A stretch of 64,000 bases of DNA from Nitrospirota bacterium. GTDB lineage: Bacteria; Nitrospirota; Nitrospiria; Nitrospirales; Nitrospiraceae. The position numbers were made by a program, and so were the translations under genes. Positions 19,958-47,976 of the stretch are shown here, in pieces; position 1 is the stretch's first letter, and each line of letters opens with the position of its first letter. The notes below the pieces were generated by a model. That model saw only the letters and a program-made list of their open reading frames with translations, ran no database searches and was not told the origin of the DNA. Location: contig JAGWTI010000004.1 of assembly GCA_028876065.1 (NCBI GenBank), positions 3,547-67,546 of the forward strand, read 5' to 3'.

Positions 19958-21163
19958 TCACCCTCCCTCGCCCGACTGGATGCGCTCTTTCAGCAGCACG
20001 TTCTTGAGGTCGAAGACGCCGTCGGTGACGACCCGGTCCCCGGCGGTCAGGCCGCTTCTGATTTCGACCCATCCCTCTCCTTCACGACCCACCTCGACCG
20101 GCGCGAAGAGGTAGCCGGCGTCACGCTGGGTGAAGACCCCGCGGGTCTGATCGAGCAACGTCACGGCCGCCGCCGGCACGGCCAGCGTGGGGGAGGCGGT
20201 CACGGCCAGCCGGACCTCCACATATTCCTGCGGCTTGAGACGTCCGTCCTGGTTGGCCACTTCGAACCGCACACGGACCGTCCGTGTCTTCTCGTCGGCG
20301 AGGGGCGAGATGTAGGTGAGGGGCGCGGTGAGCGGCGCGGCGCCTTTGGGCACGATCATGGCGTTGTCGCCCGCGTTGAACCGGCGCGCCTGTTCGATCG
20401 TCAGGCTGGCGAAGATCCACACGTGGCTCGTATCGACGATCTCGAACAGTTCGATGCCCGACGACACCCCTTGCCCGAGCACGATGTGTTGCGCCACCAC
20501 GGTGCCGGCGATCGGCGACTTAATGGTATAGCGATGTCCTTCGACATGCTGGTCCCGCTCCAACTGCTGCAGCTCTCCCGCGGTCATCCCCATGTTCAGC
20601 AGCTTTTCACGGGCATGTTGATAGCGGGCCTTGGTTTCGAGATGACGGCCGCGCTCTTCCACCAGCCGCCGTTCCGTGATGATCTGCTCGGTCCACAATT
20701 TCTGTGCCCGCTGGAAACTGTTTGCGGCCACGTCGGCTTGCGCTTTGGACACGAGATACTCTTGGACCAGTTCGTCCAGCTTCGGCCCTCCGATCGCGAC
20801 GAGCGGCTGCCCGCTGCGGACGTGGTCGCCCAGTTGCACGTGGACCTGCTCCACTTGGCCTTCGATTCGGGAGGTGACTTTTGCGACTTGCTTGAGGTCG
20901 AGGGCCACCTCGCCCGGTGCGGCGACCATCTCGGGAATCGGGCGCATGGCGGCAGCCTCCGTCCGTATCCGGCCGTGAATCGCCGGAGGAGCCTGGATCA
21001 GATGCGGACCCGAATGTCCCGGTCGGGCCGCATGGGGGGGAGCCGTCGCCGGCTCGCCGCTCTGGTTCCCGCAGCCGATCAGCAAGAGGGCCGCCGCCAA
21101 GGCGATCCATCCTCTCCGTGCAATCCGACCGTCGTTCGCGGCGCTCCTGTTGGGCGGGTTCAT
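19958..21163 (-). CDS. czcB: Efflux RND periplasmic adaptor (MFP), CzcB-like lipoprotein (401 aa)
   Basis: The ATG at 21163..21161 overlaps the czcC stop as ATGA. Lipobox 'LLIGC'. Typical barrel-sandwich/hairpin motifs ('V.SRIEG.V..V.V..GD.V..GQPL'). The ORF-track extension to 22102 is rejected. Confidence 0.9.
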   Translation of the reverse strand: MNPPNRSAANDGRIARRGWIALAAALLLIGCGNQSGEPATAPPHAARPGHSGPHLIQAPPAIHGRIRTEAAAMRPIPEMVAAPGEVALDLKQVAKVTSRIEGQVEQVHVQLGDHVRSGQPLVAIGGPKLDELVQEYLVSKAQADVAANSFQRAQKLWTEQIITERRLVEERGRHLETKARYQHAREKLLNMGMTAGELQQLERDQHVEGHRYTIKSPIAGTVVAQHIVLGQGVSSGIELFEIVDTSHVWIFASLTIEQARRFNAGDNAMIVPKGAAPLTAPLTYISPLADEKTRTVRVRFEVANQDGRLKPQEYVEVRLAVTASPTLAVPAAAVTLLDQTRGVFTQRDAGYLFAPVEVGREGEGWVEIRSGLTAGDRVVTDGVFDLKNVLLKERIQSGEGG

Positions 21164-22449
21164 AGGCGTCCCCCCGTGGCGCGTTCCAGCCGGGCCAGCG
21201 CGACCGAGAGTTCGTAGCGCGCCTGCGCATAGTCGAGCTGGATCTGTCGGTAGACCCGCTGCGCGTCCAGCAGGTCCAGCAAATTGGCCGCTCCTTGTTG
21301 AAAACTGAACTGGGCGATCCGAAGGGTCTCCTGCGCCTGTTTGAGGAGCTCCTTCTCGAAGAGATCGATCTGCTCGGCCGCCGTCTGTGCGTCCTGGAAG
21401 TCCTGTTGGATCGCGCGGCCCAGCTCGTTTCGGGTACGGAGCAACTCGGCCTCCACTCGATGCTTCGCCCCCATGGCGGTCGCCACTTCTCCTTGCCGCT
21501 GATACCAGAAGGGGATCGGGAGGCTCACGCCGCCCCCGAAGGCTTCCCGTCCGATCTCCCGCCAGTAGCCGCCATTCACCGTGAGGTCCGGCACCCTGGA
21601 CTGCCGTTCCCGTTCGACGGTGTGGTCGGCTTGCTCCACCGATGACCGTTGGCGTCTGAGGGTCGGATGCCGTTCGAAAGCCAGCGTCGTCAATGCGCCT
21701 GCGTCCATACCCTGCCGGAAGGTCTCGAAGTCCCCTCTGACGGCGAAAGTCCGGCCGAGTGCGCCGGCTGTGACCGTATCCAGCCCGACCCGCGCCACGC
21801 GTATCGCGTTGCGGGAGCGACTCAGGGCCTGATTGGCTTTCATCGCCTCCACATTGGCTTTCATCGCTTCGAACGGCGTGGCGTCTCCGGCGGCCACCCG
21901 GCTCTTGACGATCCGCAAGACGTCCTTCGCCATGGCGAGGTTCTGCTCCGCGGTCTCGGACTGCCGCTGCGCCAGGAGCAACTGGTAGAAGGCCAATTTG
22001 ACGTCGGCGATCAGGGTGAGGCGCGCTTCCTCCACGCCGGCGCCGGCGCCGGCCACCCCGGCCTCCGCGGCGCGCTGCCGGGCGGCGCGCTTGGCCGGCC
22101 ATTCGATCGGCTGGCCGACCGTAACGTTGTATTCGGTGATCGACCGGATCGTGTCGGGATCGTTGCCGATCCCCGCGCGCCCTGTATCCCGCAACAACCC
22201 GCGCCCGCTATAGCCGCCCACGTTGGGGTTGGGGTAGGCACCCGCAGCCATCTGTTGCCCATGGCTCTGCTCCATGACGCTCATGGCCCCCGCGATGGCA
22301 GGGTGGCGTTCCAGGGCCAGGTCGATCACGGCGTCGAGGGTGTAGGAAGGAGGGCCGGGCTCGCCCGCATACGCTTCCGCCATGAGTCCGAAGGCGGTGG
22401 CGGCTGACACGCCAAGCCACACGAGAGGTTTCAACCGTTGGTATGACAT
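21160..22449 (-). CDS. czcC: TolC-family outer membrane efflux protein, CzcC-like (429 aa)
   Basis: ATG at 22449 with a GAGGA SD. Signal peptide '..AATAFGLMAEAYA'. OEP repeats are present. Confidence 0.85.
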   Translation of the reverse strand: MSYQRLKPLVWLGVSAATAFGLMAEAYAGEPGPPSYTLDAVIDLALERHPAIAGAMSVMEQSHGQQMAAGAYPNPNVGGYSGRGLLRDTGRAGIGNDPDTIRSITEYNVTVGQPIEWPAKRAARQRAAEAGVAGAGAGVEEARLTLIADVKLAFYQLLLAQRQSETAEQNLAMAKDVLRIVKSRVAAGDATPFEAMKANVEAMKANQALSRSRNAIRVARVGLDTVTAGALGRTFAVRGDFETFRQGMDAGALTTLAFERHPTLRRQRSSVEQADHTVERERQSRVPDLTVNGGYWREIGREAFGGGVSLPIPFWYQRQGEVATAMGAKHRVEAELLRTRNELGRAIQQDFQDAQTAAEQIDLFEKELLKQAQETLRIAQFSFQQGAANLLDLLDAQRVYRQIQLDYAQARYELSVALARLERATGGRL

Positions 22450-22566
22450 TGCGTTCCTCACGTAGAGAGCCGCCGCGCGGGAGCGGACGGACGACGCCGT
22501 CCTGCTCGCGGGCCGCCTGCGATCCACAAGAAAGGCTTGTGCTAATTCAGGAAGCGTGAAGTTGTG

Positions 22567-23110: not shown

Positions 23111-24550
23111 TCAAAACTCCCGGAAGCCGCTTCCCGTCGAATAGGAAACGGCCACAGTGCTGGCTTTGTAAGCATAGTTGGAGTCGGCGAGCCGGACTTC
23201 CGCGACGACGAGATCGGTGGTAGCCGTCGTCACGTCGACGATCGAGGAGAGTCCTGCACGGTAACGTTCCCTGGCCAGTGTGAGCGCTTCCCGCGCAGCG
23301 GTCACTTCCTGCTCAGCCACCGTGATCTGCTGCTTGGCGGTCTGAAGGGTCAGATAGGATTCCGTTACCTCCAGCACCACCCGGTTGGCCAGATCAGTCT
23401 TCTTTTGTTCTTCCTTGTATTTTTGCTGTCGAGCCTCTGCTACGCGGTTCTCGATCAGGAAGCCGGTGAAGAGGGGGACGGAGAGCGTGGCGGCCGCTCC
23501 CCACCAGGCCTGGGAAAAACCGGGCGTTGCGCCGGGGTCTTGGTTGGTCGGCGCGTCGCTGAAATGGATGACGCCGCCCATGCCGGCCGCGGAGATGGTC
23601 GGCAGGTAGAGGGCTTGGGCCGATTTGAGCTGCGCTTCAGCCGAGCGGATGCGATCTGCGCTGCCCAGCAGCTCGGGTCGTTGTGAGAGCCCTAGCTGGG
23701 TCAGGGACTCCAGTGTGTCGATCGAGGAGAGAAGGACCGGGACATCTTCGAGCGTGTAGTCCGCGGGTCCACGTACGCCCATGGCGTTGTTCAGGGCGGC
23801 GAAGGAGGCGTGGAGATTGCTTTTCACCTGGACCAGCAAGACCTCAGCGTTCCGTAACTCCACGGAAATCAAATCCAGATCCAGTTTGGATTTTAACTGG
23901 TGTGCGTAGAGGGTGGCCACTTGGTCGCGGATCTTGCCGCGTTCCCGCACGGTCTCTTGCGCGATTTGCAATAGACGCTTGTGTTTGAGGCAACTCAGGT
24001 AAGCCTGCTGCACGGTCAGGATCACGAGGGCCTTGTGGGTGAGGATGTTTTTCTCGGCCGCCGCCGTGGTGGCCATCTCAGCCAGGACCTTGTTGGCGGT
24101 CTGACCGAAATCGTAGATCAACTGATTCGCAATCACACCTGCGTTCTGGATGTAGGATGTCGGGTGGTTCTGGGCGCCGGCAATGTTGAATGCGCTGAGC
24201 GGACGGATGTTGCCGCCGGTCTGAATCGCATAGGCGTCGATTTGCGGATAGTACTTGGCCTTGGCTTGTTGCGTCACCGCGTCGGCCGCCATGGCAGTTT
24301 CCTGGGATTTTTTTAAGATGGGGTGCTGCTCGATGCCGATCTGGATCGCGGTCTTATAGCCGAGGAAGGCGCCGGCTGCCTTTGGCGGCGTTGATGGTGC
24401 TTGCCCTGTTGCCCGGCTTTCCGAGGCAATGGTCTTTGTCGGTGGACCGGGGGCTTGCCCAGCCGACTCGCCCGTTGTTCCGACCGTGAGACAGACAACG
24501 AGCAGGCATCGCCACAGCGTTTGAGGCAGACGGAAGAAGGCCGGCATCAT
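23111..24550 (-). CDS. TolC-family outer membrane factor, paralog 3 of 3 (about 479 aa)
   Basis: ATG at 24550 or 24547, 4 nt after the stop of paralog 2. It has a signal peptide and shares blocks with the other two paralogs ('KALVILTVQQAYLSCL', 'HQLKSKLDLDL', 'FAALNNAMG'). Confidence 0.9.
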   Translation of the reverse strand: MMPAFFRLPQTLWRCLLVVCLTVGTTGESAGQAPGPPTKTIASESRATGQAPSTPPKAAGAFLGYKTAIQIGIEQHPILKKSQETAMAADAVTQQAKAKYYPQIDAYAIQTGGNIRPLSAFNIAGAQNHPTSYIQNAGVIANQLIYDFGQTANKVLAEMATTAAAEKNILTHKALVILTVQQAYLSCLKHKRLLQIAQETVRERGKIRDQVATLYAHQLKSKLDLDLISVELRNAEVLLVQVKSNLHASFAALNNAMGVRGPADYTLEDVPVLLSSIDTLESLTQLGLSQRPELLGSADRIRSAEAQLKSAQALYLPTISAAGMGGVIHFSDAPTNQDPGATPGFSQAWWGAAATLSVPLFTGFLIENRVAEARQQKYKEEQKKTDLANRVVLEVTESYLTLQTAKQQITVAEQEVTAAREALTLARERYRAGLSSIVDVTTATTDLVVAEVRLADSNYAYKASTVAVSYSTGSGFREF

Positions 24551-24554
24551 TGAG

Positions 24555-25937
24555 TCAGTAGCGACCATATTCGGCTCCCGTGGCGTAGGCGAGAGCGGAA
24601 TTGCCGGCCAGGTACCCGTACTGAGCCTCGGCCAGGCCGGTCTCCGCATTCAACAGGTCGACGGTTGCCGTGGTCACATCCAGGATGGTAGACAGGCTTG
24701 CCTTATACCGTTCGCGTGCCAGCAGCAGCGCTTCACGTGCATGCGCGACCCGCTCTTGCGCCACTTTAATTTGTTGCTCGGCGGTGAGCCGGTTCAGATA
24801 GGCTTTAGCCACCTCCAAGACTACGTCGTTGGCAATGACCCGCGTCGTGGCCTGGGCGACTCCCTTATTTGCTTCGGCCTGCTCGACCTCAGCCTCAATG
24901 CGGAAGCCGGTAAACAGCGGGGTTGTGGAGGAGAAACCCGCGCCCCACCAGCCAAGCTGTGAGCCAGGGTTGTTCGGGTTGCCGTTTGCGCTGACGACTT
25001 CCTGGCGGGCCCACCACCCGTATCCGGACGCGCCGACTCCGGTGATACTGCCGTAATTCAATGCACGGGCTGCCTTCAGCGCTTCCTCCGCTGCCTGGGT
25101 GCGGTCCTTGCTGCCGAGCAGCTCCGGCCGCCGGTCGAGGGCGTCCCGGAACAGCGGCTCGATCGGCGGCGCAGAAGATACCGTTGGCTGGATTTCATCC
25201 AGGATGTACTGTATCGGCCCTTGCCGGCCCATCGCCGCGTTCAGGGCGGCAAAGGCGGCTACTAGGTCGTTCTTGGCCTTGATGAAATCCAGTTCGGCCT
25301 TGGCTGTCTCGACGGTGGCCAAGTCCAAATCCAGTTTGGAGCGGAGCTTGTGCCGGTACATGGATTCGGCCTGTTCCCGGATCAGCCGACGCTCCGCCAG
25401 AGTCTCCTTTGTAATCGCCAAAATTCTCTGTTGTTTGAGGCAGGCAAGGTAGGCCTGCTCCACGTTTAAAATCACCAAGGCTTTGCTCGTGAGCACTAGT
25501 TTCTCGGCTGAGGCGGTGCGCGATTTATTCGCGAGAAGTTTGTGGGCTGTCTGCCCAAAGTCGGTGATCAGGAGCTCTACACGTACTCCTGGATCGGTCA
25601 AATAGTTCGTGGGCTTGGGCAACGATCCGGAGATGCCCAGATTGGAGAGCACCCGTGTATTGCCGAGCGAGTTGGCTACAATGCCGCTGACTTGGGGATA
25701 ATCCACGGCGGCAATCTGTTTGCCCACGGCCTCTGTTTCGAATACGCCGTGCTGAGCCGCCTGGATCAAAGGGTGCTGCTTGACGCCGTTCTTGATCGCA
25801 TCCTCCCAGGTGAGCTTGGCCGCAGTTGGTCCTGTCGGTTCTGCGCCAGCCGTTGCCGGTGCCTGAGCATGAGCGACGGGTGCTTCGTTCCACAGCAGGA
25901 GAGCCAGCCACAAGGCTATCATAATGGGTTGTCGCAT
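24555..25937 (-). CDS. TolC-family outer membrane factor, paralog 2 of 3 (460 aa)
   Basis: ATG at 25937, 40 nt after the stop of paralog 1. Signal peptide '..WNEAPVAHA'. Shared blocks 'KALVILNVEQAYLACL', 'HKLRSKLDLDL', 'FAALNAAMG'. Confidence 0.9.
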   Translation of the reverse strand: MRQPIMIALWLALLLWNEAPVAHAQAPATAGAEPTGPTAAKLTWEDAIKNGVKQHPLIQAAQHGVFETEAVGKQIAAVDYPQVSGIVANSLGNTRVLSNLGISGSLPKPTNYLTDPGVRVELLITDFGQTAHKLLANKSRTASAEKLVLTSKALVILNVEQAYLACLKQQRILAITKETLAERRLIREQAESMYRHKLRSKLDLDLATVETAKAELDFIKAKNDLVAAFAALNAAMGRQGPIQYILDEIQPTVSSAPPIEPLFRDALDRRPELLGSKDRTQAAEEALKAARALNYGSITGVGASGYGWWARQEVVSANGNPNNPGSQLGWWGAGFSSTTPLFTGFRIEAEVEQAEANKGVAQATTRVIANDVVLEVAKAYLNRLTAEQQIKVAQERVAHAREALLLARERYKASLSTILDVTTATVDLLNAETGLAEAQYGYLAGNSALAYATGAEYGRY

Positions 25938-25977
25938 GAAGGGCCTGCTCCTCTCAATGGGGCGATGGAGATCGGGG

Positions 25978-27471
25978 CTAGAACTTCTGGTAGTCCTGTC
26001 CCGCCGCATAGGCCACGAGAGCCTGGCTTTTCTTGTAAACGTACTGGGCCTCCGCGAGGCGGGACTCCGCGTCGAAGAGCGCGGTGGCGGCCCTGACCAC
26101 TTCTACGATCGCACTGAGCCCGAGGCGATACCGTTCCTGGGCTAGGTTCACGGCTTCCCTCGCGAAAGCCACGCGCTCTTGCTCCAATACAATCTGTTCG
26201 GCGGCCGTCGTCTGGTTGAGGGATGCACGGATGACTTGCAGAATCACTTCGTTGGCGAGGTTCTGAATCTCCTGCTCGGTCTCGCCTTTACGGTGGCCCG
26301 CTTCGACGATCTGGTTTTGAATCTTGAACCCGGTGAATAACGGGAGCCGGGCTGAGACCCCGAAGCCCCAGAGTGGAGCCACTCCGTCCTGGGGAATGCC
26401 ACCGTCATGTACATCGCCGTATTTCGTGATGCCGATGGTGCCTACTGTCGAGATCTCTCCTAAATTGAACGCTCTGACCTCCTGAAGCAGTTCCTGCGTG
26501 GCCACCAAACGGTGTTGTTCTCCCAACAATTCAGGCCGGTTCTTCAGCCCTTCCTCAACCAACTGGTCCATCGCGGGCGGAGGCGCGGTTGCCATCGAGA
26601 CTTTTTCCAGTTCGTACCGATTAGGTCCTTCAACCCCCATCGCGTTGTTCAGGGCAGCGAAAGCCTGCGACAGGTCGTTCTGCGCCTTGATCAAGGCCAA
26701 CTCGGCGTTCTTGACCTGAACCGTCACGAGGTCCAGGTCCAGCTTCGACTTGAGCTGGTGTTTGGTCAAGGCCTGTAGCTGTTTCTGGATAAGCGCGCGC
26801 TTCTCCAGATTTTCTGCGGCGATTTCGACGAGACGCTGCTGCATGAGGCAGGTGAGGTAGGCCTGTTGGACGTTCAGGATGACTAGGGCCTTGTTCGTGA
26901 GAATGTCCTTCTCCGTCGCGGTTTCCGTCGCCTGGCTGGCCAGGATGTGATGGGCGGTCGCGCCGAAGTCCGTGATCAGCTGGTTCAGGAGCAACCCTCC
27001 CGTCATCATGTTCTGGTTGTGTTTGGGCAACGCGCCAGCTAGGGCATAGCCCCGGCCGCCGCCGTATTGATGTAACTCGGCTCGGTTGCGGAGGCCGCGG
27101 AGGAAGCTGGATCCCAAGTCGCCGGTGGCATGGATGTTGGCGCCATCGCTGCTCAAGACTCTGATCGAGCCGGTTCCTCCGGCGACAGAGGCTTCGAGCC
27201 AGGGATATTGCCTGCCCTGGTCCTGCTTGGTTTCGGCCGCTGCACTCTTTAAGGTGGCCCGTGCTCGTTCAATCAGTGGATGTTTTTCCAAACCGGTCCC
27301 AATCGCCTCCCGCAGGCTGAGGAAGGGTGCCGGAGATGTGGCTGGCTGGGGTGCCGGATTCTTGCCGGAGGACGATGCGGCGTTGGGGGCCGAGTCGTTC
27401 GGCTGTGCCAGTGCGGAAACAGGATGCCAGGTCGCGAGGAACAGCAGGCATATGTAGAAGACGACCGGCAT
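25978..27471 (-). CDS. TolC-family outer membrane factor, paralog 1 of 3 (497 aa)
   Basis: ATG at 27471 with a strong AAGGAGG SD. Signal peptide '..ATWHPVSALA'. Shared blocks 'KALVILNVQQAYLTCL', 'HQLKSKLDLDL', 'FAALNNAMG'. Confidence 0.9.
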   Translation of the reverse strand: MPVVFYICLLFLATWHPVSALAQPNDSAPNAASSSGKNPAPQPATSPAPFLSLREAIGTGLEKHPLIERARATLKSAAAETKQDQGRQYPWLEASVAGGTGSIRVLSSDGANIHATGDLGSSFLRGLRNRAELHQYGGGRGYALAGALPKHNQNMMTGGLLLNQLITDFGATAHHILASQATETATEKDILTNKALVILNVQQAYLTCLMQQRLVEIAAENLEKRALIQKQLQALTKHQLKSKLDLDLVTVQVKNAELALIKAQNDLSQAFAALNNAMGVEGPNRYELEKVSMATAPPPAMDQLVEEGLKNRPELLGEQHRLVATQELLQEVRAFNLGEISTVGTIGITKYGDVHDGGIPQDGVAPLWGFGVSARLPLFTGFKIQNQIVEAGHRKGETEQEIQNLANEVILQVIRASLNQTTAAEQIVLEQERVAFAREAVNLAQERYRLGLSAIVEVVRAATALFDAESRLAEAQYVYKKSQALVAYAAGQDYQKF

Positions 27472-27557: not shown

Positions 27558-28775
27558 TCAATACTTCTGGCTGGCCGACTTGCCGGCCGGAAGGTCGTAC
27601 GCGGATGCGGTCACGGCTTGTCCGTCTTGAAGGTTGCTTTTGCCAACGATGACGACATCTTCGCTGCCGGTGAGTCCTTCGATAACCTCGACCCAGAGCC
27701 CGTCATCGATACCGGTCTTGATCGGGACGCGGCGGACCTTCCCGTTTTCGACCACAAAGACCGATTTGGTATTCCCATTGCTCCCCGGCGTGATCGCGGC
27801 TGGCGGAAGGATCAAGGCATTTTGGTGCCGCTCCAGATAAAGTGTCGCATTGATAAACATGCCGGGCTGGAGCCGGTGGCTCTTGTTGGGCAGGTCGATC
27901 TCCACAAGAAGCGTACGGGTGGATGGGTCCAACGCTCCGGTCGTACGGGTAATGGAGCCTTTGATCTCCTGGCCTGGCAGTTCCTTGACTGACAGGGTCG
28001 CTGGGATGCCCGGCATGGCCAGTGCTGAAGATTCCTGGGGAACACTCACGTATATTCGAACCGTGTCTATATCCATCATGGTAAACAGGGGATTCGCCTG
28101 CGTCGATGATCCAGTGGCGGCTTGGATCAGCGTTCCCGGGTCGGCAAAGCGGGCCGTGATGGTGCCGGCGAAAGGCGCGGTGACCCTTGTATACTCCAGG
28201 AACGTGCGCCGCCGTTCCATTAACTGCTTGGCTCCTTCGGCTTCTGCCTCCGCCACGTCCACGTCCTGTTTCGCGATCACGTCAGGATTTTCCTTCCAAA
28301 CGCCGAAGAGCCGCTCGTAGGTCAATTTCTTAATGGCATACTCCGCCTCGGCTTGTTGGGCTTGATCCAGGATTTCCGGTGCGTCGATCAGGGCCAGGAG
28401 CTGCCCTTTCTTGACCGTGTCGCCCTTGTCGAACCCGATCCATTTTAAGAAGCCGGACACTTTGCCATAGAGAGTAGCCTGGTACCAGGGCGAGATATTA
28501 GCGGGTAAGGTGAGGGTGCGCGACACATCCCGGCGCTGGGGTTTAGTGACCTGGACCAGATGGGTTGCCGGCTGAGCGCCGGACGGGGCGGTGGCTTTGG
28601 CCACCTCAGGCGCAGAGCCGGTCTCATGCTGGCCTTGGAAGAAGACAAAGGCTGCCACTACGAGAAAGAGCCCCGCTGCAGCAATTAGGATGGCCTTGAG
28701 CCGGTTTGGCTGGGGACTGTGGCCCAGCTCCGATGAATCAAGCGGTGATACCTCGTGCCGGTCCTGCTCAGTCAA
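27558..28775 (-). CDS. Efflux RND periplasmic adaptor subunit (MFP), membrane-anchored (405 aa)
   Basis: The start codon is TTG (28775..28773), preceded by AAGGAGG at 6 nt spacing. There is no in-frame ATG before the TM helix. 'GFDKGDTVKKGQLLALIDAPE' is a typical lipoyl-like motif. Confidence 0.9.
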   Translation of the reverse strand: MTEQDRHEVSPLDSSELGHSPQPNRLKAILIAAAGLFLVVAAFVFFQGQHETGSAPEVAKATAPSGAQPATHLVQVTKPQRRDVSRTLTLPANISPWYQATLYGKVSGFLKWIGFDKGDTVKKGQLLALIDAPEILDQAQQAEAEYAIKKLTYERLFGVWKENPDVIAKQDVDVAEAEAEGAKQLMERRRTFLEYTRVTAPFAGTITARFADPGTLIQAATGSSTQANPLFTMMDIDTVRIYVSVPQESSALAMPGIPATLSVKELPGQEIKGSITRTTGALDPSTRTLLVEIDLPNKSHRLQPGMFINATLYLERHQNALILPPAAITPGSNGNTKSVFVVENGKVRRVPIKTGIDDGLWVEVIEGLTGSEDVVIVGKSNLQDGQAVTASAYDLPAGKSASQKY

Positions 28776-28822: not shown

Positions 28823-31800
28823 TCACTGCCCCTCGCGAGCGGCAGTGTCCTCCGCCTGAATGGCCGAGCCTCGTCGAGCGAGGGAGTGCAGGACAGGGAT
28901 AAACAGCAAAGTCATCACGGTGGATACGGACAGTCCCCCGATGACCGCTCGTGCCAGCGGCATGTTGGCTTCACTGCCTTCTCCGATACCCAAGGCCATC
29001 GGCGCCAGGCCGAAGATCGTGGCGAGCGATGTCATCAGGATTGGACGGATGCGAAGCCGCCCTGCGTCCACCACGGCCTCCTCCAAAGAGGCCCCCTCCC
29101 TCAGTCGCTGGTTCGCGAAGTCCACCAGCAAAACGCTGTTGGAGACGACGATCCCGATCATCATCAGTGTCCCGATGAGCGACTCGACGTTAAGCGAGGT
29201 ATTAGTGAGGAGGAGCATCCAGATGACCCCGATGAGCCCCAGCGGGACCGCAAACATGATGACGAAGGGGTCTAGGTAGGAGCGGAAGAGGCCGACCATG
29301 ACCAGATAAATGAGGACAATTGCCAAAGGGAGTCCTCCGCCGAATCCGATCAACGCCTGTCTCATGCTGTCGACTTCCCCCTTGAAAGAAACCACCACGT
29401 CCTTGGGCAAATCCAACGTGGCCAACGCTTCCTCGATCTTGCCAGCTACCCGCCCCAAATCATTACCCGGTACGTCTACCAAGACGTCCATGGTCCGTTG
29501 GAGATTGTAATGATCTATCGTTTCAGGTCCGTTCTTCCTGGTCACGTCGATGATATCGCGGAGCACGACAGGTGAACGGGCTGCGCCATTGGTGTGAGGA
29601 AGGATGGGACTTTCAGGGAAAGGGGTCTGTTGCAGGGCCAGGGAGCTGCCATGGGCCGTAGAGGAACTGACGGTCGAGGCTTCCTTCACATTCGCGCCGA
29701 CGAGCGGGATATTGAGAAAATCCTCGAACTGGACCAGCATTTGTTCCGGATACTGGGTCACCACGAAGTAGGCGTTGTTGGTCTTGGAGTCGATCCAGTA
29801 ACCTGGGTTGAGCTGGATATTGGAACTCAAGCCGGTGATCACATCCGTGACGACGTTTTGTGCATTGAGGCCCAGATATGCGGATTTAGCACGGTCCACG
29901 GTCATGTGTAGTTCCGGATAGGACATGCCTTGGCGGACCTGTGCATCCACCGTCCCCGGGATCCTGACCGCCAATTCCTTGATACGTGCTGCCACATCGG
30001 CCACTTCATGCAGATGAGGTCCGCTGACCTTGATGTCAATCGGCGCAGGCAGACCGAAATTCAGCACGTCGCTAACGATTCCGCCGGTCTGGAAGGAGTA
30101 CTTCAGGCCGGGCATCTCCTTGTGTAGCCGTTCCCGAAGCTGGTCCACTACATCGTCGGTCCCTACCTTATGGTCTTGCTTGAGGCTGACTAGGATAAAC
30201 GCCTGATGAGGGCCCACCACCGGTGTATAGAGCACCATCCATCCTTGCGGAACGCCGATGTTGGCGACGATCTGGTTCAGATCATCCGGAGGGATCACTT
30301 GGCGGATGAGCTCTTCGATCCGCGCCACGATCGCCTCGGTCTTCTCCACTCTCATCCCCTCCGGCGCCGACACGTTTAGAATGAACTGGCCTGCGTCGAC
30401 CTTGGGAAAAAACTCGGTGGCCAGGCGCGGCGCCATCATGACTGAGACGGCAAAAATGGCCGCGACCGTCACAATCACGATGGCTTTGTGATGCAGGCAC
30501 CAGCGCAAAACCTGCACATAGCGCGTAACGAATGGATCGAAGAGGTTCAGCTTGTGCCATAGGGCTGTCAGCCCCGAAGTCTTTTCTTTGGCGTGCCCCG
30601 CATGCCCGCCGTGTTTACCTTTGAGCAGATAGGCCAGGCAGACCGGCGCTACGCTCAGGGCGCCCGCATAGGAGGCCATCATGGCGTAGCCCACGGAGAG
30701 GGCCAGGGGTACAAAGAGAAACTTGATGATGCCCGTAAAAAAGGCGATGGGCAGAAAGACGAGGAAGACGGTGATCGTGATCACCAGCATCGGAAGCGCG
30801 ACTTCGGTGGTTGCGTCACCAGCCGCCTCGTAGGAAGATTTGCCCATGTCCAGGTGCCGGTGGGTGTTCTCGACCACCACGATCGCGTCGTCCACCAGAC
30901 GACCGACCGCCAGCGCCAGACCGCCTAGTGTCATGATGTTGATCGTGTGGCCGGTGAAGTAAAGCCCGATGAAGGCGGCCGTGACCGAGAGGGGGATCGC
31001 CAGCGCGATGATGACTGTGTAGCGGAGGCTACCCAAGAACAGTAAGACCATCAAGCAGGCGAGGCCACCACCTAGGAGGCCTTCATGCTCCAGGGTTTGG
31101 ATCGATTGACGAATGTAGAGTGACTGGTCGAACACCAGCTTGACATCCAATCCGGCCGGCAATCCGATCAACTTCGGGATCGCCGCTTTGACTCCGTCGA
31201 TGACTTCCAACGTGTTGGCGCCGGCTTGCTTCATCACCGGAATGTAGACGGCTCGGTGGCCATCGATGCGCACCACATTCGTCTGGATCATGGCTGAATC
31301 GACGGCCTTGCCGACTTCCTTCAATGTGACCGGCGTTCCGTTGACGATCTTGATCGGGATCTGGTTCATGTTGTCTACGACTCGGATCATGCTGTTGGTG
31401 TAGACATTGTAGTCGAAGTCGCCGATCTTCACGTCACCGGCAGGGAGTAGGAGACTCTGGGTATTGACGGCATTGACGATGTCGCCGGCCGAGATACCGC
31501 GGGCCAGCATCCGCTCCCGGTCCAGGAAGACCGTGATCTGACGGACCGTGCCGCCGAAAGTCGGGGGCAATGAAATGCCGGGTACGCCTCCGAACTGAGG
31601 CCGCACGGTGAAATAGGCCAGGTCCCGCACCTCTTTCTCGGTCATGGTCTCGCTGCTGACGGTGAGGTCCGCAATGGGGAGACTGGTGGCGCCGAACTTG
31701 ATGATGATCGGCGGGAAGACGCCTTGCGGCAGATAGCGAAGTGTGCTGTAGGTCAGGCTGGTGATCTCGGCGACGGCCGCATTTACGTCATAGGACGGTT

Positions 31801-32080
31801 GAAAGTAAATCTTGACGAGGCTAACGCCGGGCAGGGAGCGGGATTCGATGTGTTCGATATATGACGCCTGCAAGTAGAGTTGTTCTAGGCGTAGGGTGAT
31901 GGCCCCTTCGACTTCGGACGGCCCCATGCCTTTGTAGAAAGTGACGACGGCCACGACGGGCAGGTTGATTTCCGGGAAGATGTCCACGACCATCTTTTGA
32001 TAGGACACCACGCCCAGGATAATGACGATCAGGCTGATTGCCACCACTGCGAAGGGATTTTTGAGCGATGCACGGACCAT
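28823..32080 (-). CDS. RND efflux permease, HAE1-type TM4 signature, paralog 1 (1085 aa)
   Basis: ATG at 32080; the ORF-track start at 32083 is a TTG one codon upstream. 'LALAVGRLVDDAIVVVEN'. His-rich central loop 'GKHGGHAGHAKEK' (coded near 30592..30621). Confidence 0.95.
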   Translation of the reverse strand: MVRASLKNPFAVVAISLIVIILGVVSYQKMVVDIFPEINLPVVAVVTFYKGMGPSEVEGAITLRLEQLYLQASYIEHIESRSLPGVSLVKIYFQPSYDVNAAVAEITSLTYSTLRYLPQGVFPPIIIKFGATSLPIADLTVSSETMTEKEVRDLAYFTVRPQFGGVPGISLPPTFGGTVRQITVFLDRERMLARGISAGDIVNAVNTQSLLLPAGDVKIGDFDYNVYTNSMIRVVDNMNQIPIKIVNGTPVTLKEVGKAVDSAMIQTNVVRIDGHRAVYIPVMKQAGANTLEVIDGVKAAIPKLIGLPAGLDVKLVFDQSLYIRQSIQTLEHEGLLGGGLACLMVLLFLGSLRYTVIIALAIPLSVTAAFIGLYFTGHTINIMTLGGLALAVGRLVDDAIVVVENTHRHLDMGKSSYEAAGDATTEVALPMLVITITVFLVFLPIAFFTGIIKFLFVPLALSVGYAMMASYAGALSVAPVCLAYLLKGKHGGHAGHAKEKTSGLTALWHKLNLFDPFVTRYVQVLRWCLHHKAIVIVTVAAIFAVSVMMAPRLATEFFPKVDAGQFILNVSAPEGMRVEKTEAIVARIEELIRQVIPPDDLNQIVANIGVPQGWMVLYTPVVGPHQAFILVSLKQDHKVGTDDVVDQLRERLHKEMPGLKYSFQTGGIVSDVLNFGLPAPIDIKVSGPHLHEVADVAARIKELAVRIPGTVDAQVRQGMSYPELHMTVDRAKSAYLGLNAQNVVTDVITGLSSNIQLNPGYWIDSKTNNAYFVVTQYPEQMLVQFEDFLNIPLVGANVKEASTVSSSTAHGSSLALQQTPFPESPILPHTNGAARSPVVLRDIIDVTRKNGPETIDHYNLQRTMDVLVDVPGNDLGRVAGKIEEALATLDLPKDVVVSFKGEVDSMRQALIGFGGGLPLAIVLIYLVMVGLFRSYLDPFVIMFAVPLGLIGVIWMLLLTNTSLNVESLIGTLMMIGIVVSNSVLLVDFANQRLREGASLEEAVVDAGRLRIRPILMTSLATIFGLAPMALGIGEGSEANMPLARAVIGGLSVSTVMTLLFIPVLHSLARRGSAIQAEDTAAREGQ

Positions 32081-32230
32081 CAACGTTTCCGATCAGCTAT
32101 GAACCGATCGCCTCTTGTGTTGGCGTCGGGCGTAAGAAGGTGTAAGCCATGCGTGCCGCATTATCAGGCATTCTTTCATCTCCGAATGAACGTTACGGCA
32201 GGGATAGTCATTAGAGGCGGGGATGGCCCT

Positions 32231-32563
32231 TTAGATGAGTAATTCGCATGGGATGGCGAAGAGTTTTATGGGGACCTTGCCCCATTGCGTAGACGGTTTC
32301 AACGTACTCATATGCTGCTGCTGGGCTAAGTGGTCGTGGAACTTTTTCAATCTTTGCACAACCCGTTCAGCCTGCTCTTCCCCCATGGCGGCAAGGACCA
32401 TGGCATTGTATCCCGGCCAACCGAATGACTGGCCTGCTGCTCCGGTTTCGCCCATGCCGAAGACTTTGGGGACTTCGGTAAAGGCTTTGACGTCAAGTTC
32501 TTCTAGTAACTGCAAGAGGTCGTGTTCCAGCGGCTGGCGGAAGATGAGGAGCAGCATCTTCAT
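32231..32563 (-). CDS. PII-like fold small protein (110 aa), possibly DUF3240-like, between the two RND genes
   Basis: The beta-alpha-beta-beta-alpha-beta pattern is read by eye: 'KMLLLIF', 'LEHDLLQLLEEL', 'FTEVPKVFGMG', the loop 'ETGAAGQSFGWPG', 'YNAMVLAAM', 'EEQAERVVQRLKKF', 'IKLFAIPCELL'. ATG at 32563; alternative ATG at 32602. Confidence 0.5.
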   Translation of the reverse strand: MKMLLLIFRQPLEHDLLQLLEELDVKAFTEVPKVFGMGETGAAGQSFGWPGYNAMVLAAMGEEQAERVVQRLKKFHDHLAQQQHMSTLKPSTQWGKVPIKLFAIPCELLI

Positions 32564-32643
32564 GGCCGCTGTCTCACATCTACGTCGCAGGGGGCGTCGC
32601 ATTCCGACTTCTGTCCGAATTTTCGAATCACTACGATCGCCAT
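32560..32643 (-). CDS. 27-codon micro-ORF (MAIVVIRKFGQKSECDAPCDVDVRQRP) translationally coupled to the PII-like gene
   Basis: Translated by hand. The ATG at 32643..32641 is immediately preceded by TAGGAGG, with only 2 nt of spacing. Its stop TGA (32562..32560) overlaps the PII-like ATG as ATGA. It falls below the ORF-track length cutoff. Confidence 0.25.
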   Translation of the reverse strand: MAIVVIRKFGQKSECDAPCDVDVRQRP

Positions 32644-33381
32644 GGCCTCCTAATCAGGGCGGGAAATTTTTCACCGGATAAAGCCTCAAGCAATTTATAT
32701 ACCATAGTTTCAGGCTCCTCGTTCTCAATTTTTTGTTATCCCGAGATTTTGAAGTCTGGATTAGAGCATTGTCACATGAAACATGGAAGCTACATTCCAG
32801 TTTTTCCCAATTCATCAACAAGGGTCTGAGCTTGACTGCCCCTTCGTGAATAAGTAGAAAACGGTTGACAGCAAAGGGGTATCGGGCAGTCAAGGCCATA
32901 TGTCGTTGAGGTTGAACCAGGGCGGTGCCCATGCTGTTATTAGAACCACTCCCATGTTTCGCACCTCCATAGAGTACCAGCCCACAGTGACATAACGGCA
33001 TCGTATATTAGAAGATTGCCCAGTCCCTTCGGCAGCCCATGTGGCAAGGGAGCTAAGCCAAATAGCAAACCGGGTGAGCGGTTCCGCACTAGCCGCACTG
33101 TGCAAGGAGAACCCGGCCGATGAGTCTTGTGCTATCGATTCTAATCAGTGGGACTCAACGGAACCTTGTACTGTTTATCAGTTGCCTCGATCACCACGCA
33201 AGTGGCAATCACGCAACGTTGAGAAAAGAATCCTTTCTCATCGAGTAGAGTTGGAAGCAGGCGTCACCTTGTCAAAAGCGGTACTTTACCGTTCCCCAAT
33301 AGGCTGCATGTCCGCTCCTGTCGAGATCGCTGCGCTCGCTCGTCCGGTTGATGCGCCTGCCACTGGATTGCGGAAGCAGCG

Positions 33382-36300
33382 TCATGGCTGCTCCTCCTGC
33401 TTGTGAGATGGAGAAGCCGTTGCCAGGCTGGCCGCTGATCGGCGGTGGAAGGTTATGTAAAGGACCGGAGTGAAGAGCAATGCCATGGTCACCGAGACGA
33501 GAAGCCCGCCAATGACCGCCCGCGCCAGCGGCACGTTCATCTCGCTCCCTTCGCCGATGCCGAGGGCCATTGGTGCCAAGCCGATGATGGTGGCCAGCGA
33601 GGTCATCAGGATCGGGCGGATCCGAAGGCGCCCGGCCTCCACGACCGCCTCTAACGGTGACATGCCCTTCCGCAGGCGATTGTTGGCGAACTCTATGATG
33701 AGAACGCTATTGGCTACGTCGATCCCGATCCCCATCAAGGTGCCGATGAGGGACTCTACGTTAAGGGAGGTGTCCGTGAGCAACAACATCCAGATCACTC
33801 CCATAAACCCAAGGGGGACCACAAACATCATGATGAACGGATCGAGCCAGGAGCGGAAGAGGCCGACCATGACCAAATAAATCAGGAGCATGGCGAGGGG
33901 AAGGGCTCCTGCAAACCCGATCAACGCGGCCCGCATGGCTTCTGCCTCGCCCTTGATGGCCAGGAGAACATCCTGGGGAAGTTGAAGCGTGGCTAATTGC
34001 TGCTCGATCTGCCTGGCCACCCGGCCGAGGTCGTTTCCCGGCACGCTGACCAGAACATCGATGGTGCGTTGCAGATTGTAATGGTCCACCGTCTCCGGAC
34101 CGGTTTTCCTGACGACATCGGTGATGTCCCGCAGGAGAATCGGAATCGAAGGAGGGCCGGCTCCAACTTCCGGCAGAAGTGGGGTTTCCGGAAAAGGCGT
34201 CTGTTGCAGGGCCAAGGCGCTGCCGCGCTGCAGGATTCCCCCTCCGCTGGCCGATGGCGGCAGCTTTGCCCGTTCCCCAACAATGAGAGGCATGTTGAGG
34301 AAGTCCTCAAATTTCACCAGCGTTTGTTCCGGGTACTGGGCAACGACGAAGTAGGCGTTGTTGGACTGCGGATCGATCCAGTACCCCGGGTTCCATTGCA
34401 CATTCGAGCTCAGCCCGGTGATGAGATCGACGACAATTTGCTGCTCGTTGAGGCCCATGTAGATCGATTTGGCCCTGTTCACGTTGAGGTGGATTTCCGG
34501 GTACGCCATCCCCTGATGCACCTGCACGTCTGCAGCGCCGGGCACGGAGGCAATCATATCTCGGATCTTCTCGGCAGTCTCGGCCAGGTCGGCCAGGTTG
34601 GGCCCGCTGACTTTGATGTCGATGGGGGCCGACAGGCCGAAGTCGATCACATCGCTGACGATTCCGCCTGTCTGAAACGAAAATTTCAGCCCGGGCAGAT
34701 CACGGGCAAGCGCCGGGCGCAGGCGGGCGATGATGTCATCGGCGCGGAGCCTGTGCCCGCGCTTGAGACTCACGAGCATGAACGCCTGGTGAGGGCCGTT
34801 GACCGGGGTGTAGAGCATCATCCACCCCTGCGGCATGCCGATGTTCACGACGATCTGATCAAGCTCGGCCGGTGGGATTTCCTTGCGGATCAGGGCTTCG
34901 ATCTGCGCGGTAATCGCCTCGGTTTTTTCCACCCGTGTGCCTTGCGGCGCCGAGACGTTCAGAATGAACTGGCCTGCGTCCACTTTAGGGAAAAATTCCG
35001 TAGCCAGACGGGGTGCCAGCAGCAGCAATGAGCCGCCGAAGCTTGCTGCGACGGCCACAATCACGAGCGCTTTATGCGCCAGGCACCAACGGAGCACCCG
35101 GACGTACCCCGCCACAAACGGGTCAAAGAGATTCAGCCGCTTCCAGAGCGCAACGAGACCCCGTGCGGGCGGCGGGCTCTGACCATGCCCGGCGTGCCCG
35201 TATCCACGGAACAGGCGCTCCATTGTAACCGGGGCAACGGTCAGCGCGTCGAGATAAGATGCCATCATGGCGAGGGCGACGGCCAGCCCGAGCGGCACAA
35301 ACAGGAACCTGATGACGCCGGTGAAGAAGGCAATGGGCAGAAAGACGAGAAAGACCGTGATGGTGATCACCAGCATGGGGAGCGCCACTTCGGTGACCGC
35401 ATCCCCGGCAGCCTGCATGGAGGGTTTCCCCATCTCCAAGTGCCGATGAAAATTTTCCACGACGATGACCGCATCGTCTACCAGCCGGCCGACCGCCAAC
35501 GCCAGGCCTCCCAAGGTCATGATGTTGACCGTGTGGCCCGCGGAGTACAGACCGATAAAGGCGGCGGTCACCGACAGAGGGATGGCCAGGACGATCACGA
35601 GGGTGGAACGCAGGCTGCCGAGAAATAGGAGCACCATCAGGCAGGCGAGGCCGCCGCCCATGAGGCCCTCATGGGCCAAGGTCCGGATCGCCTGTCGGAC
35701 ATACAGCGACTGGTCGAAAATGAGCTTGACGGTCAGGTCCTTCGGAATCCCGATGAGCTTGGGAACCACTTCCTTGACCCCATCGATGACCCGGATCGTG
35801 TTGGCCCCGGCCTGTTTCATGATCGGAAGATAGACCGCCCGATGGCCGTTGATTTGCACGATGTTCGTTTGGATCATAGAAGAATCGGCCGCCCGCCCCA
35901 CATCTTTCAGAAAGACCGGTACGCCGTCGACGACTTTGATCGGAATCTCGTTCATGTGCTCGACAAACCGGATCATGCTGTTGGTATAGACGTTGTAGTC
36001 GATGTCGCCGATCTTGACGTCGCCGGCAGGGAGCAGGACGCTCTGGGTGTTCACCGCGTTGACGATGTCACCGGTCGAGACGCCGCGGGCCAACATCCGC
36101 TCCCGATCCAGAAACACGGTGACCTGACGAATTGTCCCACCGAAGGTTGGGGGCAGTGAAATGCCGGGCACCCCGCCAAACTGAGGGCGCACGTTGAAAT
36201 AGGCGAGGTCACGGACTTCTTTTTCCCCCAGCTTCTCGCTGCTGACGGTCAAATCGGCAATGGGCAGACTGGCGGCGCCGAACTTGATGATGATCGGGGG

Positions 36301-36666
36301 AAATATCCCCTGTGGGAGGTACTTAAGCGCGGAGTACGTCAGGCTGGTGATCTCCGCCATACCGGCGTTGACGTCATAGGACGGCTGAAAATAGACCTTG
36401 ATGAGACTGACGCCGGGCAGCGAACGCGATTCGATATGTTCGATGTAGGAGGCTTGCAGATAGAGCTGCTCGAGGCGCAGCGTGATGGCTCCCTCGACTT
36501 CCGAAGGACCCATCCCTTTGTAGAAGGTGGCGACGGCGACGACCGGCAGGTTGATCTCCGGGAAAATGTCCACGACCATGTTCCGGTAGGACACGACGCC
36601 CAGGACCACCACGATCAGGCTGATTGCTGCTACCGCATAGGGATTCTTCAGGGATGCCCGAACCAT
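33382..36666 (-). CDS. RND efflux permease, HAE1-type TM4 signature, paralog 2 (1094 aa)
   Basis: ATG verified at 36666. Very similar to paralog 1 along its whole length. 'LALAVGRLVDDAVIVVEN'. His-containing central loop 'GYGHAGHGQSPPP' (coded near 35180..35210). Confidence 0.95.
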   Translation of the reverse strand: MVRASLKNPYAVAAISLIVVVLGVVSYRNMVVDIFPEINLPVVAVATFYKGMGPSEVEGAITLRLEQLYLQASYIEHIESRSLPGVSLIKVYFQPSYDVNAGMAEITSLTYSALKYLPQGIFPPIIIKFGAASLPIADLTVSSEKLGEKEVRDLAYFNVRPQFGGVPGISLPPTFGGTIRQVTVFLDRERMLARGVSTGDIVNAVNTQSVLLPAGDVKIGDIDYNVYTNSMIRFVEHMNEIPIKVVDGVPVFLKDVGRAADSSMIQTNIVQINGHRAVYLPIMKQAGANTIRVIDGVKEVVPKLIGIPKDLTVKLIFDQSLYVRQAIRTLAHEGLMGGGLACLMVLLFLGSLRSTLVIVLAIPLSVTAAFIGLYSAGHTVNIMTLGGLALAVGRLVDDAVIVVENFHRHLEMGKPSMQAAGDAVTEVALPMLVITITVFLVFLPIAFFTGVIRFLFVPLGLAVALAMMASYLDALTVAPVTMERLFRGYGHAGHGQSPPPARGLVALWKRLNLFDPFVAGYVRVLRWCLAHKALVIVAVAASFGGSLLLLAPRLATEFFPKVDAGQFILNVSAPQGTRVEKTEAITAQIEALIRKEIPPAELDQIVVNIGMPQGWMMLYTPVNGPHQAFMLVSLKRGHRLRADDIIARLRPALARDLPGLKFSFQTGGIVSDVIDFGLSAPIDIKVSGPNLADLAETAEKIRDMIASVPGAADVQVHQGMAYPEIHLNVNRAKSIYMGLNEQQIVVDLITGLSSNVQWNPGYWIDPQSNNAYFVVAQYPEQTLVKFEDFLNMPLIVGERAKLPPSASGGGILQRGSALALQQTPFPETPLLPEVGAGPPSIPILLRDITDVVRKTGPETVDHYNLQRTIDVLVSVPGNDLGRVARQIEQQLATLQLPQDVLLAIKGEAEAMRAALIGFAGALPLAMLLIYLVMVGLFRSWLDPFIMMFVVPLGFMGVIWMLLLTDTSLNVESLIGTLMGIGIDVANSVLIIEFANNRLRKGMSPLEAVVEAGRLRIRPILMTSLATIIGLAPMALGIGEGSEMNVPLARAVIGGLLVSVTMALLFTPVLYITFHRRSAASLATASPSHKQEEQP

Positions 36667-37066
36667 GGAAAATGCTTTACGAGCCTCATTGTGAAGGGGA
36701 GGTAAATGGAGTCATGTGAGAGGGTAAATAATATATTTCAACATTTCAAGTTTTGGGTCCCTTGAATATTTTGTTCGTCCCGGTGGAGCACCGCATCTTG
36801 CACGGAATCATAACGAATTTGTCCGGTAAATACCATGAAGGGCTGCAAAAGGAGGAGAGATCAGCAAGCGTGGCTAAATAAGATGCGACAAGAGACGAGT
36901 CACGTCCGTGCGTCGGTTGGGAGGGAACTGCACACTCAGGTATTCTTTCTCAGTCGGCCGGCCATCGTTTGGGCATAGGTGAAACGCGGGCGAGCAGAAT
37001 CCAGTTGAGCGATATTGCACGGTTCGCACAGTACGGAGTTGCCAGTTTAACCAGTGGGTGTGTTGC

Positions 37067-37082
37067 TGGCATGCTGAAAGCA
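37067..37082 (+). promoter_or_regulatory. Weak sigma-54-type -24/-12 candidate TGGCAT-GCTGA-AAGCA
   Basis: The GG-N10-GC spacing is correct, but the -12 flank is AAGC instead of TTGC. It lies about 125 nt upstream of the wHTH-like ORF. Confidence 0.2.
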
Positions 37083-37205
37083 ATGCCTGTTGTGGATTTT
37101 ATCGAGGAGGAGGGTGGGAATAAAATTTGCATCGGATTCCCCAAGCCAACGCGTCACGTGAGCCTAGGTCAAGGGAGAGCGTATCACCCTGCGCCTCTAA
37201 TTACG

Positions 37206-45955: not shown

Positions 45956-45958
45956 GAT

Positions 45959-47881: not shown

Positions 47882-47976
47882 GACGGCCTCTGGGTACGTG
47901 CCGGGAGCCTGTCGGTCCGGCGTCGTGGCGTCGAGGCTCCCGTGCTGGAAATCATAGCGGAATATACATGCAAAGA

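Follow-up and report, generated by a model that had tools for sequence, protein, structure and literature searches.

Within a stretch of 64,000 nucleotides from a Nitrospirota genome (assembly GCA_028876065.1, contig JAGWTI010000004.1, positions 3,547 to 67,546; the whole stretch is referred to as the window), two genes encode permeases of the resistance-nodulation-division (RND) superfamily, which we name RND1 and RND2. The locus is an efflux operon of Nitrospiraceae and belongs to an uncharacterised clade that is restricted to Nitrospirales. RND1 is the resident pump of this operon, while RND2 is a solitary gene upstream of it. We see about an even chance that RND2 represents an accessory pump subunit which would borrow the adaptor and the ducts of RND1, in the manner of AcrD from Escherichia coli. 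The source genome, a metagenome-assembled genome (MAG) of Nitrospiraceae, comprises 3.4 Mb, is 100% complete and is labelled G000 in our genome comparisons.

All relevant genes are located on the minus strand of the window. In the direction of transcription, RND2 is followed by a spacer of ~0.8 kb, a gene for a PII-like protein, RND1, the periplasmic adaptor (membrane fusion protein, MFP) and three ducts of the TolC family:

33382..36666, minus strand: RND2, solitary RND permease of 1094 aa (PF00873, 671 bits)
32564..33381, minus strand: spacer between RND2 and the PII-like gene, of lower GC content, without a convincing open reading frame and with a sequence unique in the genome
32231..32563, minus strand: PII-like protein of 110 aa, first gene of the RND1 operon (Pfam P-II, 3.6e-6)
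28823..32080, minus strand: RND1, resident pump of the operon, 1085 aa from its ATG (PF00873, 690 bits)
27558..28775, minus strand: periplasmic adaptor (TIGR01730, 205 bits)
25978..27471, 24555..26009 and 23111..24649, minus strand: three tandem TolC-family duct genes (span 23111..27471)

Partners and trimer composition of RND2

An earlier reading of the letters alone (the sequence-only reading) had described two RND genes of 1085 and 1094 aa, and both open reading frames are indeed intact at these lengths; an alternative TTG start at 32083 would extend RND1 to 1086 aa. The gap of 1.3 kb between them consists of the ~0.8-kb spacer and the PII-like gene. The same reading had noticed that only one MFP gene accompanies the two permeases. 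This was confirmed: upstream of RND2 only plus-strand genes and no MFP were found, the spacer contains none either, and the second MFP of the neighbourhood (19958..21217) is part of a separate czcCBA module, which lies ~1 kb beyond the last duct gene and comprises a duct (21160..22527), this CzcB-type adaptor (19958..21217) and a CzcA (16888..19956). Furthermore, a tblastn census of the whole genome identified a single MFP of the cognate type, the one at 27558..28775 beside RND1, and thereby supports the notion of one shared adaptor. Every other MFP of the genome is at most 30% identical to the adaptors of RND2's relatives, and nearly all of them adjoin an RND gene of their own. By blastx, neither the spacer nor the region upstream of RND2, both of which are unique in the genome, revealed a remnant of an adaptor, a duct or a PII gene. 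Consequently, the spacer was ruled out as the site of leftover partner genes. Since no such remnant exists in the spacer and the sole cognate adaptor is encoded beside RND1, sharing of the RND1 adaptor and ducts would be the simplest arrangement if RND2 works.

A precedent is known from E. coli, where AcrD uses AcrA and TolC despite unlinked genes (PMC8277102). The gene arrangement observed here corresponds to it: no adaptor or duct gene accompanies RND2, and the cognate adaptor is found with its paralogue RND1. Thus AcrD and RND2 are both solitary RND genes without adjacent adaptor or duct, and each is paralogous to the RND permease of a complete system, although AcrD can use the adaptor of that system, while for RND2 we infer such borrowing. 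In addition, the structural model of RND1 superposes on AcrD with a template-modelling score of 0.86. However, there are differences as well. AcrD is unlinked to acrAB, whereas RND2 is located 1.3 kb upstream of its presumed partner operon, and RND1 and RND2 lack the lysine of transmembrane helix 10 (TM10), have the gene order RND then adaptor, and share 20-23% identity with solved structures.

If the AcrD-like arrangement holds, RND2 would assemble with the adaptor and the ducts encoded beside RND1 and would act as a second inner-membrane pump of different specificity or coupling, while mixed RND1/RND2 trimers might occasionally be possible. The two permeases are most alike in their N-terminal third (85-90% identical), and in AcrB the N-terminal third includes the inter-protomer hairpin region. 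Their region of greatest difference comprises the C-terminal periplasmic half and the C-terminus, with 50-70% identity; it is the periplasmic domains that set the specificity of RND pumps (PMC8277102).

While the sole cognate adaptor supports sharing, it does not separate homotrimers, as in AcrD, from mixed trimers, as in MdtBC. The sequence-only reading had suggested the latter, and in this scenario RND1 and RND2 would form a dedicated MdtBC-like heterotrimer on a single adaptor with divided roles, one of them, for example, with an altered TM10 relay. MdtBC is a known heterotrimer (PMC8277102), and both MdtABC of E. coli and Salmonella (an MdtB2C heterotrimer) and MuxABC-OpmB of Pseudomonas combine two paralogous RND permeases with a single adaptor. 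The position of RND2 on the same strand, 1.3 kb upstream and without adaptor or duct, the one cognate adaptor beside RND1, and the nearly identical N-terminal thirds would fit such a pump. Among the sequences of the PDB, MdtB gives the best match (304 bits). Moreover, the pair, including the TM10 variant of RND2 described below, recurs in a second genome (G054), and true tandem RND-RND pairs in one operon with one adaptor exist in G006, G049, G046 and G144.

However, the two genes are not adjacent but separated by the spacer and the PII-like gene, while in mdtABC the RND genes follow the adaptor in tandem; here they precede it and stand apart from each other. Genomes of the same genus possess the RND1-type pump alone with the same adaptor and ducts, while relatives of the RND2 type occur alone in complete operons. 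The co-occurrence of the pair in other genomes, which had been proposed as a check of the heteromer, turned out to be the exception: the same-genus genomes comprise RND1 only, and RND1 together with an RND2-type permease, recognised by its TM10 aspartate, was found in G000 and G054 only among ~250 genomes of the family. Unlike MdtABC and MuxABC-OpmB, the pair is thus not conserved across related genomes. The scores of RND1 and RND2 also remain far below the cut-offs of the MdtB equivalog (NF007798: 346 and 338 bits vs. 1584) and of the MdtC equivalog (NF007905: 368 and 340 bits vs. 1774). Taken together, the obligate MdtBC-like heteromer is neither shown nor favoured by these data, and we consider it unlikely.

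Origin and selective constraint of RND2

Over their full length, RND1 and RND2 are 74-75% identical at the protein level (BLASTP: 75% over 1080 aa). The sequence-only reading had estimated about four-fifths identity for the N-terminal half, which comes close to the mean of ~83% measured over the first 480 codons. It had also judged the genes to be less similar at the DNA level and the duplication not to be recent, and both judgements proved correct. The DNA identity is 71%, third codon positions are 47% identical, and the number of synonymous substitutions per site (dS) of ~1.5 is saturated; based on these values the duplication is old. The ratio of nonsynonymous to synonymous substitutions (dN/dS) between the two genes is 0.12. 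No segment was detected in which the synonymous similarity of RND1 and RND2 exceeds that of RND2 to other orthologues. Thus, given dS, the third-position identity and the lack of a conversion segment, recent duplication or gene conversion can be excluded.

The phylogenetic placement of both paralogues, likewise proposed along with the heteromer, was obtained from an IQ-TREE analysis of 23 sequences and a FastTree analysis of 140 sequences. In both trees RND2 branches outside the clade that is formed by RND1 and its same-genus orthologues. The FastTree analysis pairs RND2 with a gene of G054 at 100% support on a long stem (0.16), and this pair groups loosely (support 83) with pumps of the soil Nitrospira P0005, P0006 and G262. 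The latter are the nearest relatives of RND2 (81-82% identity), and each of them is the only RND permease of its operon, which also encodes an adaptor and three ducts. In G054, the RND2 orthologue (87% identical) carries the same TM10 motif, IGIDVANSV, and is alone on its contig, while the RND1 orthologue (92% identical) is followed by the adaptor and three ducts. The contigs of G054 break inside the similar RND genes, so that an adjacency of RND1 and RND2 is not visible there.

RND1 orthologues of related genomes are 86-92% identical to RND1, and the same-genus genomes G001, G002 and G004 possess one RND gene only, 86-87% identical to RND1. Directly upstream of RND1, the genomes G002, G001 and G018 carry an orthologue of the window gene 47977..51681. 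In G001 (L015, ~6157-6790), an open reading frame directly upstream of RND1 combines the N-terminal portion of a CHASE3 histidine kinase, whose orthologue in the window is 45959..49123, with the C-terminal portion of a receiver, an arrangement that resembles a deletion scar. Therefore, at least part of a 15-kb block holding RND2 was deleted in these relatives. Consequently, RND2 either goes back to an ancient duplication and disappeared from most lineages, or it was acquired from another lineage of Nitrospira; an adaptor and ducts of its own were lost or never present.

The comparison with G054 allows the selective constraint to be assessed at unsaturated distances. Between RND2 and its G054 orthologue dN/dS is 0.17-0.19 at a dS of 0.37-0.41, while in the same pair of genomes RND1 has a ratio of 0.067, the adaptor one of 0.13 and the ducts have ratios of 0.10-0.18. 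The ratio of RND2 is thus 2.5-2.8 times that of RND1. RND2 also deviates at 24 near-invariant columns, the highest number among 122 homologues (median 1), and six of these deviations cluster in TM10 (M979G, V983D, S985A, L990I, V991I and D992E):

33688..33729, minus strand: TM10 segment of RND2, IGIDVANSVLIIEF, with an extra Asp (V983D) and with Ala (S985A) at the position of AcrB K940 (alignments)

The resulting motif IGIDVANSV is clade-specific. It is kept in G054 and also occurs in L128 (metagenome contig Ga0335081_10217713), the one relevant hit among five matches of a metagenome scan for IGIDVANSV-coding DNA. On this contig the RND2-type gene is broken into four frames. After it come a divergent PII-like gene and, next, a lipoprotein gene in convergent orientation; an RND1-type operon is absent from the contig.

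Judged from its intact frame and its dN/dS against the G054 orthologue, RND2 is maintained by purifying selection, which is looser than for RND1, and its membrane relay region has undergone a specific change, with the extra TM10 aspartate, that is conserved in G054. An alternative scenario would be that RND2 once belonged to a second operon, was left stranded when this operon was deleted or transferred only in part, has no working partners and is now being lost. It would explain why same-genus genomes do without RND2 and agrees with the deletion scar beside RND1 in G001, with the record number of conserved-column deviations, with the elevated dN/dS and with the frameshifts in the TM10-Asp relative of L128. 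In contrast, the frame of 1094 codons is intact, the dN/dS of 0.17 at a dS of 0.4 points to continued purifying selection, and the unusual TM10 substitutions, being kept in G054 and L128, are not random. We therefore regard decay without function as highly unlikely.

Nevertheless, three points weigh against RND2 as an accessory, AcrD-like subunit. With 75% identity and a near-identical N-terminal third, the two permeases could readily assemble into mixed trimers, provided that both are expressed. No minus-strand terminator was found after RND2 in the spacer; therefore read-through into the RND1 operon is possible. Finally, the looser constraint on RND2 might equally reflect early decay, as its TM10-Asp relative in L128 is frameshifted.

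Family membership and periplasmic insert

Both permeases belong to the RND superfamily, as their PF00873 (ACR_tran) scores of 690 (RND1) and 671 bits (RND2) exceed the cut-off of 28. Their assignment to a class is less straightforward. The sequence-only reading had placed both pumps in the HAE1 class because of their fourth transmembrane helix (TM4):

30854..30910, minus strand: TM4 relay motif of RND1, AVGRLVDDAIVVVEN, followed by HRH (sequence, alignments)
35440..35496, minus strand: TM4 motif of RND2, AVGRLVDDAVIVVEN (sequence)

The signature itself is present in both proteins, with the Asp-Asp pair of AcrB (D407/D408) in the context GRLVDDA, and it is not of the metal type DFG..DGA..VEN. 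However, the class assignment drawn from it is not robust. At the position of AcrB K940, RND1 has Ser (SN) and RND2 has Ala (AN), in contrast to the KN of MdtB, AdeG and BpeF, and a TM10 lysine at this position was found in none of 123 sequences of the family and its superclade, while the residues that correspond to R971, R973 and T978 are retained. Within the clade that carries the D-D pair, an Arg is found three residues before it (GRLVDD), whereas sister clades combine Thr with D-N (GTLLDN; GTLLDNNIVVLEN), a coupled change. Both proteins also fall short of the family models: TIGR00915 (HAE1) gave 369 and 344 bits vs. a cut-off of 940, TIGR00914 (HME, CusA/CzcA) 431 for RND1 and 389 for RND2 vs. 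701, and even the best NCBIfam model, RND_permease_2, was missed with 594 and 561 vs. 1250. Given the absence of a lysine at K940, the D-N sister clades and the missed cut-offs, the TM4 motif alone does not make RND1 and RND2 HAE1 pumps. The neighbouring CzcA (16888..19956), for comparison, reaches 1151 bits against the TIGR00914 cut-off of 701.

Only Nitrospirales contain homologues with more than 54% identity. Relatives of the next level, at 36-42%, stem from Acidobacteriota, Gemmatimonadota, Myxococcota, Planctomycetota and Paraburkholderia; most of them share the order RND then adaptor, and all that were examined are without the TM10 lysine. A family operon consists of an optional PII-like or receiver gene, the RND gene, the adaptor and one or three ducts.

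For RND1, a first AlphaFold model from a shallow alignment (A1) reached a mean predicted local distance difference test score (pLDDT) of 51.7 and was discarded, and a model from a diverse alignment with a pLDDT of 86.4 was used instead. It superposes with template-modelling scores of 0.83-0.87 on AcrD, CusA, AcrB, AdeB and others and fits the HAE1 pumps (AcrD, AcrB, AdeB, CmeB) and the HME pump CusA equally well (0.86-0.87, at 20-23% identity). The likeness to CusA/CzcA thus comprises the fold (0.87 to CusA) and a similar neighbourhood with PII and metal-efflux genes. In contrast, TM4 of RND1 and RND2 reads VDDA rather than DFG..DGA..VEN or VDAA, and the scores lie under the TIGR00914 cut-off. 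Values of pLDDT below 50 were obtained at two sites only, in a cytoplasmic loop (residues 493-498) and in a periplasmic insert (residues 799-833). The Pro/Ser-rich insert had been noticed before as common to both permeases, and the alignments locate it in each of them:

29573..29701, minus strand: periplasmic insert of RND1, 43 aa, residues 794-836 (alignment; low confidence in the model)
34144..34281, minus strand: periplasmic insert of RND2, 46 aa, residues 796-841, core GSALALQQTPFPETPLLP (alignment)

Both inserts contain the core ALALQQTPFPE(S/T)P(I/L)LP and align just before the strand that matches residue 790 of MdtB and residue ~799 of AcrB. We take this site to be the turn of the docking-domain (DC) hairpin, which is located on top of the pump and faces adaptor and duct. 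Throughout the Nitrospirales family the insert is 42-51 aa long and keeps the core GSxLALQ(Q/N)TPF, while distant relatives have either 5-12 residues or unrelated inserts of 38-47 aa at this site. Among the latter, relatives from Bryobacteraceae and Terriglobia (37-40% identical; L063, L065, L067, L070, L073, L074, L076 and others) carry an unrelated Ser/Thr/Ala/Gly-rich insert of 39-47 aa that ends in ..SQAYGNPGA.. at the same DC-hairpin site. The turn of the DC hairpin seems to be an insertion hot spot.

The composition of the operon varies within the family. Three diverged TolC-family genes follow the adaptor in the same order in several genera of Nitrospiraceae (loci L013, L015-L017, L019, L033, L036, L041, L042, L046, L049), and other members of the family possess a single duct. 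Subfamily B, 53-56% identical to RND1, and some operons of subfamily A (L025-L030, L036, L053-L060) encode a stand-alone receiver of ~145 aa without an output domain directly upstream of the RND gene, in the place of the PII-like gene. The tandem RND-RND pairs with one adaptor lie behind a PII-like gene (L018 of G006, L037 of G049, L038 of G046 and L045/L046 of G144), and typically one copy has the TM4 D-N type (GTLLDNNIVVLEN) and the other the D-D type (GRLVDDAIVVVEN). In G006, the DC inserts of the two tandem copies are nearly identical, which suggests partial gene conversion. Double-pump operons were found in L043 (G128) and L044 (G108), in the order receiver, RND (subfamily B), adaptor, PII-like gene, RND (subfamily A), adaptor and a single duct; here two RND-adaptor pairs occur with one common duct.

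Histidine cluster, PII-like gene and regulation

The second flexible segment of the RND1 model is the loop after TM6, which is rich in histidine in both permeases:

30572..30619, minus strand: His-rich cytoplasmic loop after TM6 of RND1, residues 488-503, GKHGGHAGHAKEK / GKHGGHAGHAKEKTSG (sequence; low confidence in the model)
35158..35205, minus strand: His-rich cytoplasmic loop after TM6 of RND2, residues 488-503, GYGHAGHGQSPPP / GYGHAGHGQSPPPARG (sequence)

The sequence-only reading had regarded a shared HAGH core of this loop as a conserved motif. HAGH is indeed present in both proteins, but it fails as a conserved element when orthologues are compared. In a survey of 122 homologues that are 73-89% identical to RND2, only nine contain it; the RND1 orthologue of G054 retains HAGH (GKHGGHAGHEEKK), while the RND2 orthologue of the same genome is without it (GRGHTEQGHSLPP). 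Therefore, the shared tetrapeptide is, as judged from these sequences, a coincidence within a loop rich in His, Gly and Ala. What is kept in the family is the composition. Across the same homologues the loop comprises 13.7% His compared to 1.8% protein-wide (7.6 times), and 116 of the 122 have at least two His, usually two or three and often 2 to 4 residues apart, although the loop varies in sequence and in length (13 to 31 aa) and has no fixed His position. Thus the His-richness as such is a real family trait, and the model fits a flexible cytoplasmic linker after TM6. In the model, the His loop and the Pro/Ser-rich insert stand out as the two flexible parts of a fold that is canonical for RND pumps in all other respects, and both are traits of the family.

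Two further histidines follow the Glu-Asn of TM4 directly, in the HRH motif. Of 60 sequences of the Nitrospira family, 59-60 have H408 and H410, whereas in distant relatives the position of H408 is His in about half and that of H410 is mostly Asn. One might speculate that loop and HRH together form a functional cytoplasmic His cluster of a metal-cation exporter, and that this cluster binds a metal cation or a proton or serves as docking site of the PII-like protein. Besides the enrichment in the loop and the near-invariance of H408 and H410, this idea draws on the PII-domain gene that heads the operon and on the true CzcCBA module next door. A similar gene order is known from Geobacter sulfurreducens, where PII-NG-czcABC (GSU2134-2137) is induced by Co(II) and the PII-like protein is discussed as a possible cytoplasmic metal sensor (PMC7726332). 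There, too, a PII-domain gene is located directly upstream of RND, adaptor and duct in the same order. However, the Nitrospira locus has three ducts and an extra RND gene, and the likeness is one of gene order. Several observations speak against the His site: none of the loop histidines is fixed in position, the length of the loop ranges widely, disorder is predicted for the loop, TM4 differs from the metal type, and neither permease reaches the CusA/CzcA cut-off. Neither a metal riboswitch nor a known metal regulator was found in a search of 32000-38000, a region in which no known RNA element was matched by Rfam. Thus a functional His site is possible but doubtful. With respect to the substrate, the PII-like gene, the adjacent czcCBA and the His cluster may be taken as hints toward metals, while the TM4 type and the family scores would be counter-hints.

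In many relatives, too, a PII-like gene is located ahead of the RND gene. All 11 of 11 members of the PII-like family match P-II, and the PDB profile matches are PII proteins. A word-based search with the PII-like protein returned eight close relatives only and did not reach Geobacter. Compared to relatives of 101 aa, the protein encoded here has an insertion of nine residues (MSTLKPSTQW region), and the PII-like gene of G004, which matches over the first 60 residues only, appears degenerate. By analogy to GlnK on AmtB, a trimeric PII-like protein might dock on the cytoplasmic face of the RND trimer, with the His cluster as contact or metal-sensing site, while RND2 with its extra TM10 carboxylate would retune ion coupling in mixed trimers; together with three different duct subunits, the pump would then be heteromeric in two respects and its gating controlled from the cytoplasmic side. 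This combined scenario is very improbable, and we mention it as speculation.

Upstream of the PII-like gene, a possible promoter element was noticed:

32690..32704, minus strand: weak sigma-54-like -24/-12 element, TGGTATATAAATTGC, 141 nt upstream of the PII-like start; a lead only

With 72 matches vs. 69 expected, the window shows no enrichment of this pattern, and no such element was found upstream of the PII genes of five relatives. Consequently, a sigma-54 promoter was rejected as a conserved feature. The regions upstream of RND2 and of the PII-like gene showed no similarity to each other that would indicate a shared regulatory region. Elsewhere, the window (44567-49123) encodes a sigma-54 activator of the NtrC type together with a CHASE3 histidine kinase. 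Both recur beside the efflux operon in relatives, downstream of the ducts in G007 (L019), while G001 retains a remnant, and they are candidates for its regulation. Literature on this Nitrospira pump operon was not found.

Taken together, an accessory RND paralogue that shares the partners of a resident pump is a familiar pattern, while the RND family to which both permeases belong departs from textbook pumps in several aspects. Its proton relay is without the TM10 lysine, and its TM4 switch from D-D to D-N is coupled to the Arg. Further departures are the DC-hairpin extension of 43-51 aa, the cytoplasmic His cluster and the PII-like first gene, and in some lineages the ducts are three in number or the RND genes form tandem pairs. 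With RND pairs that are tandem in some genomes and solitary in others, the family represents a natural series for asking when RND heterotrimers evolve. Since Nitrospira are key nitrifiers in soil and in wastewater treatment, what this conserved pump exports and how RND pumps couple to protons without the lysine would be worth knowing.

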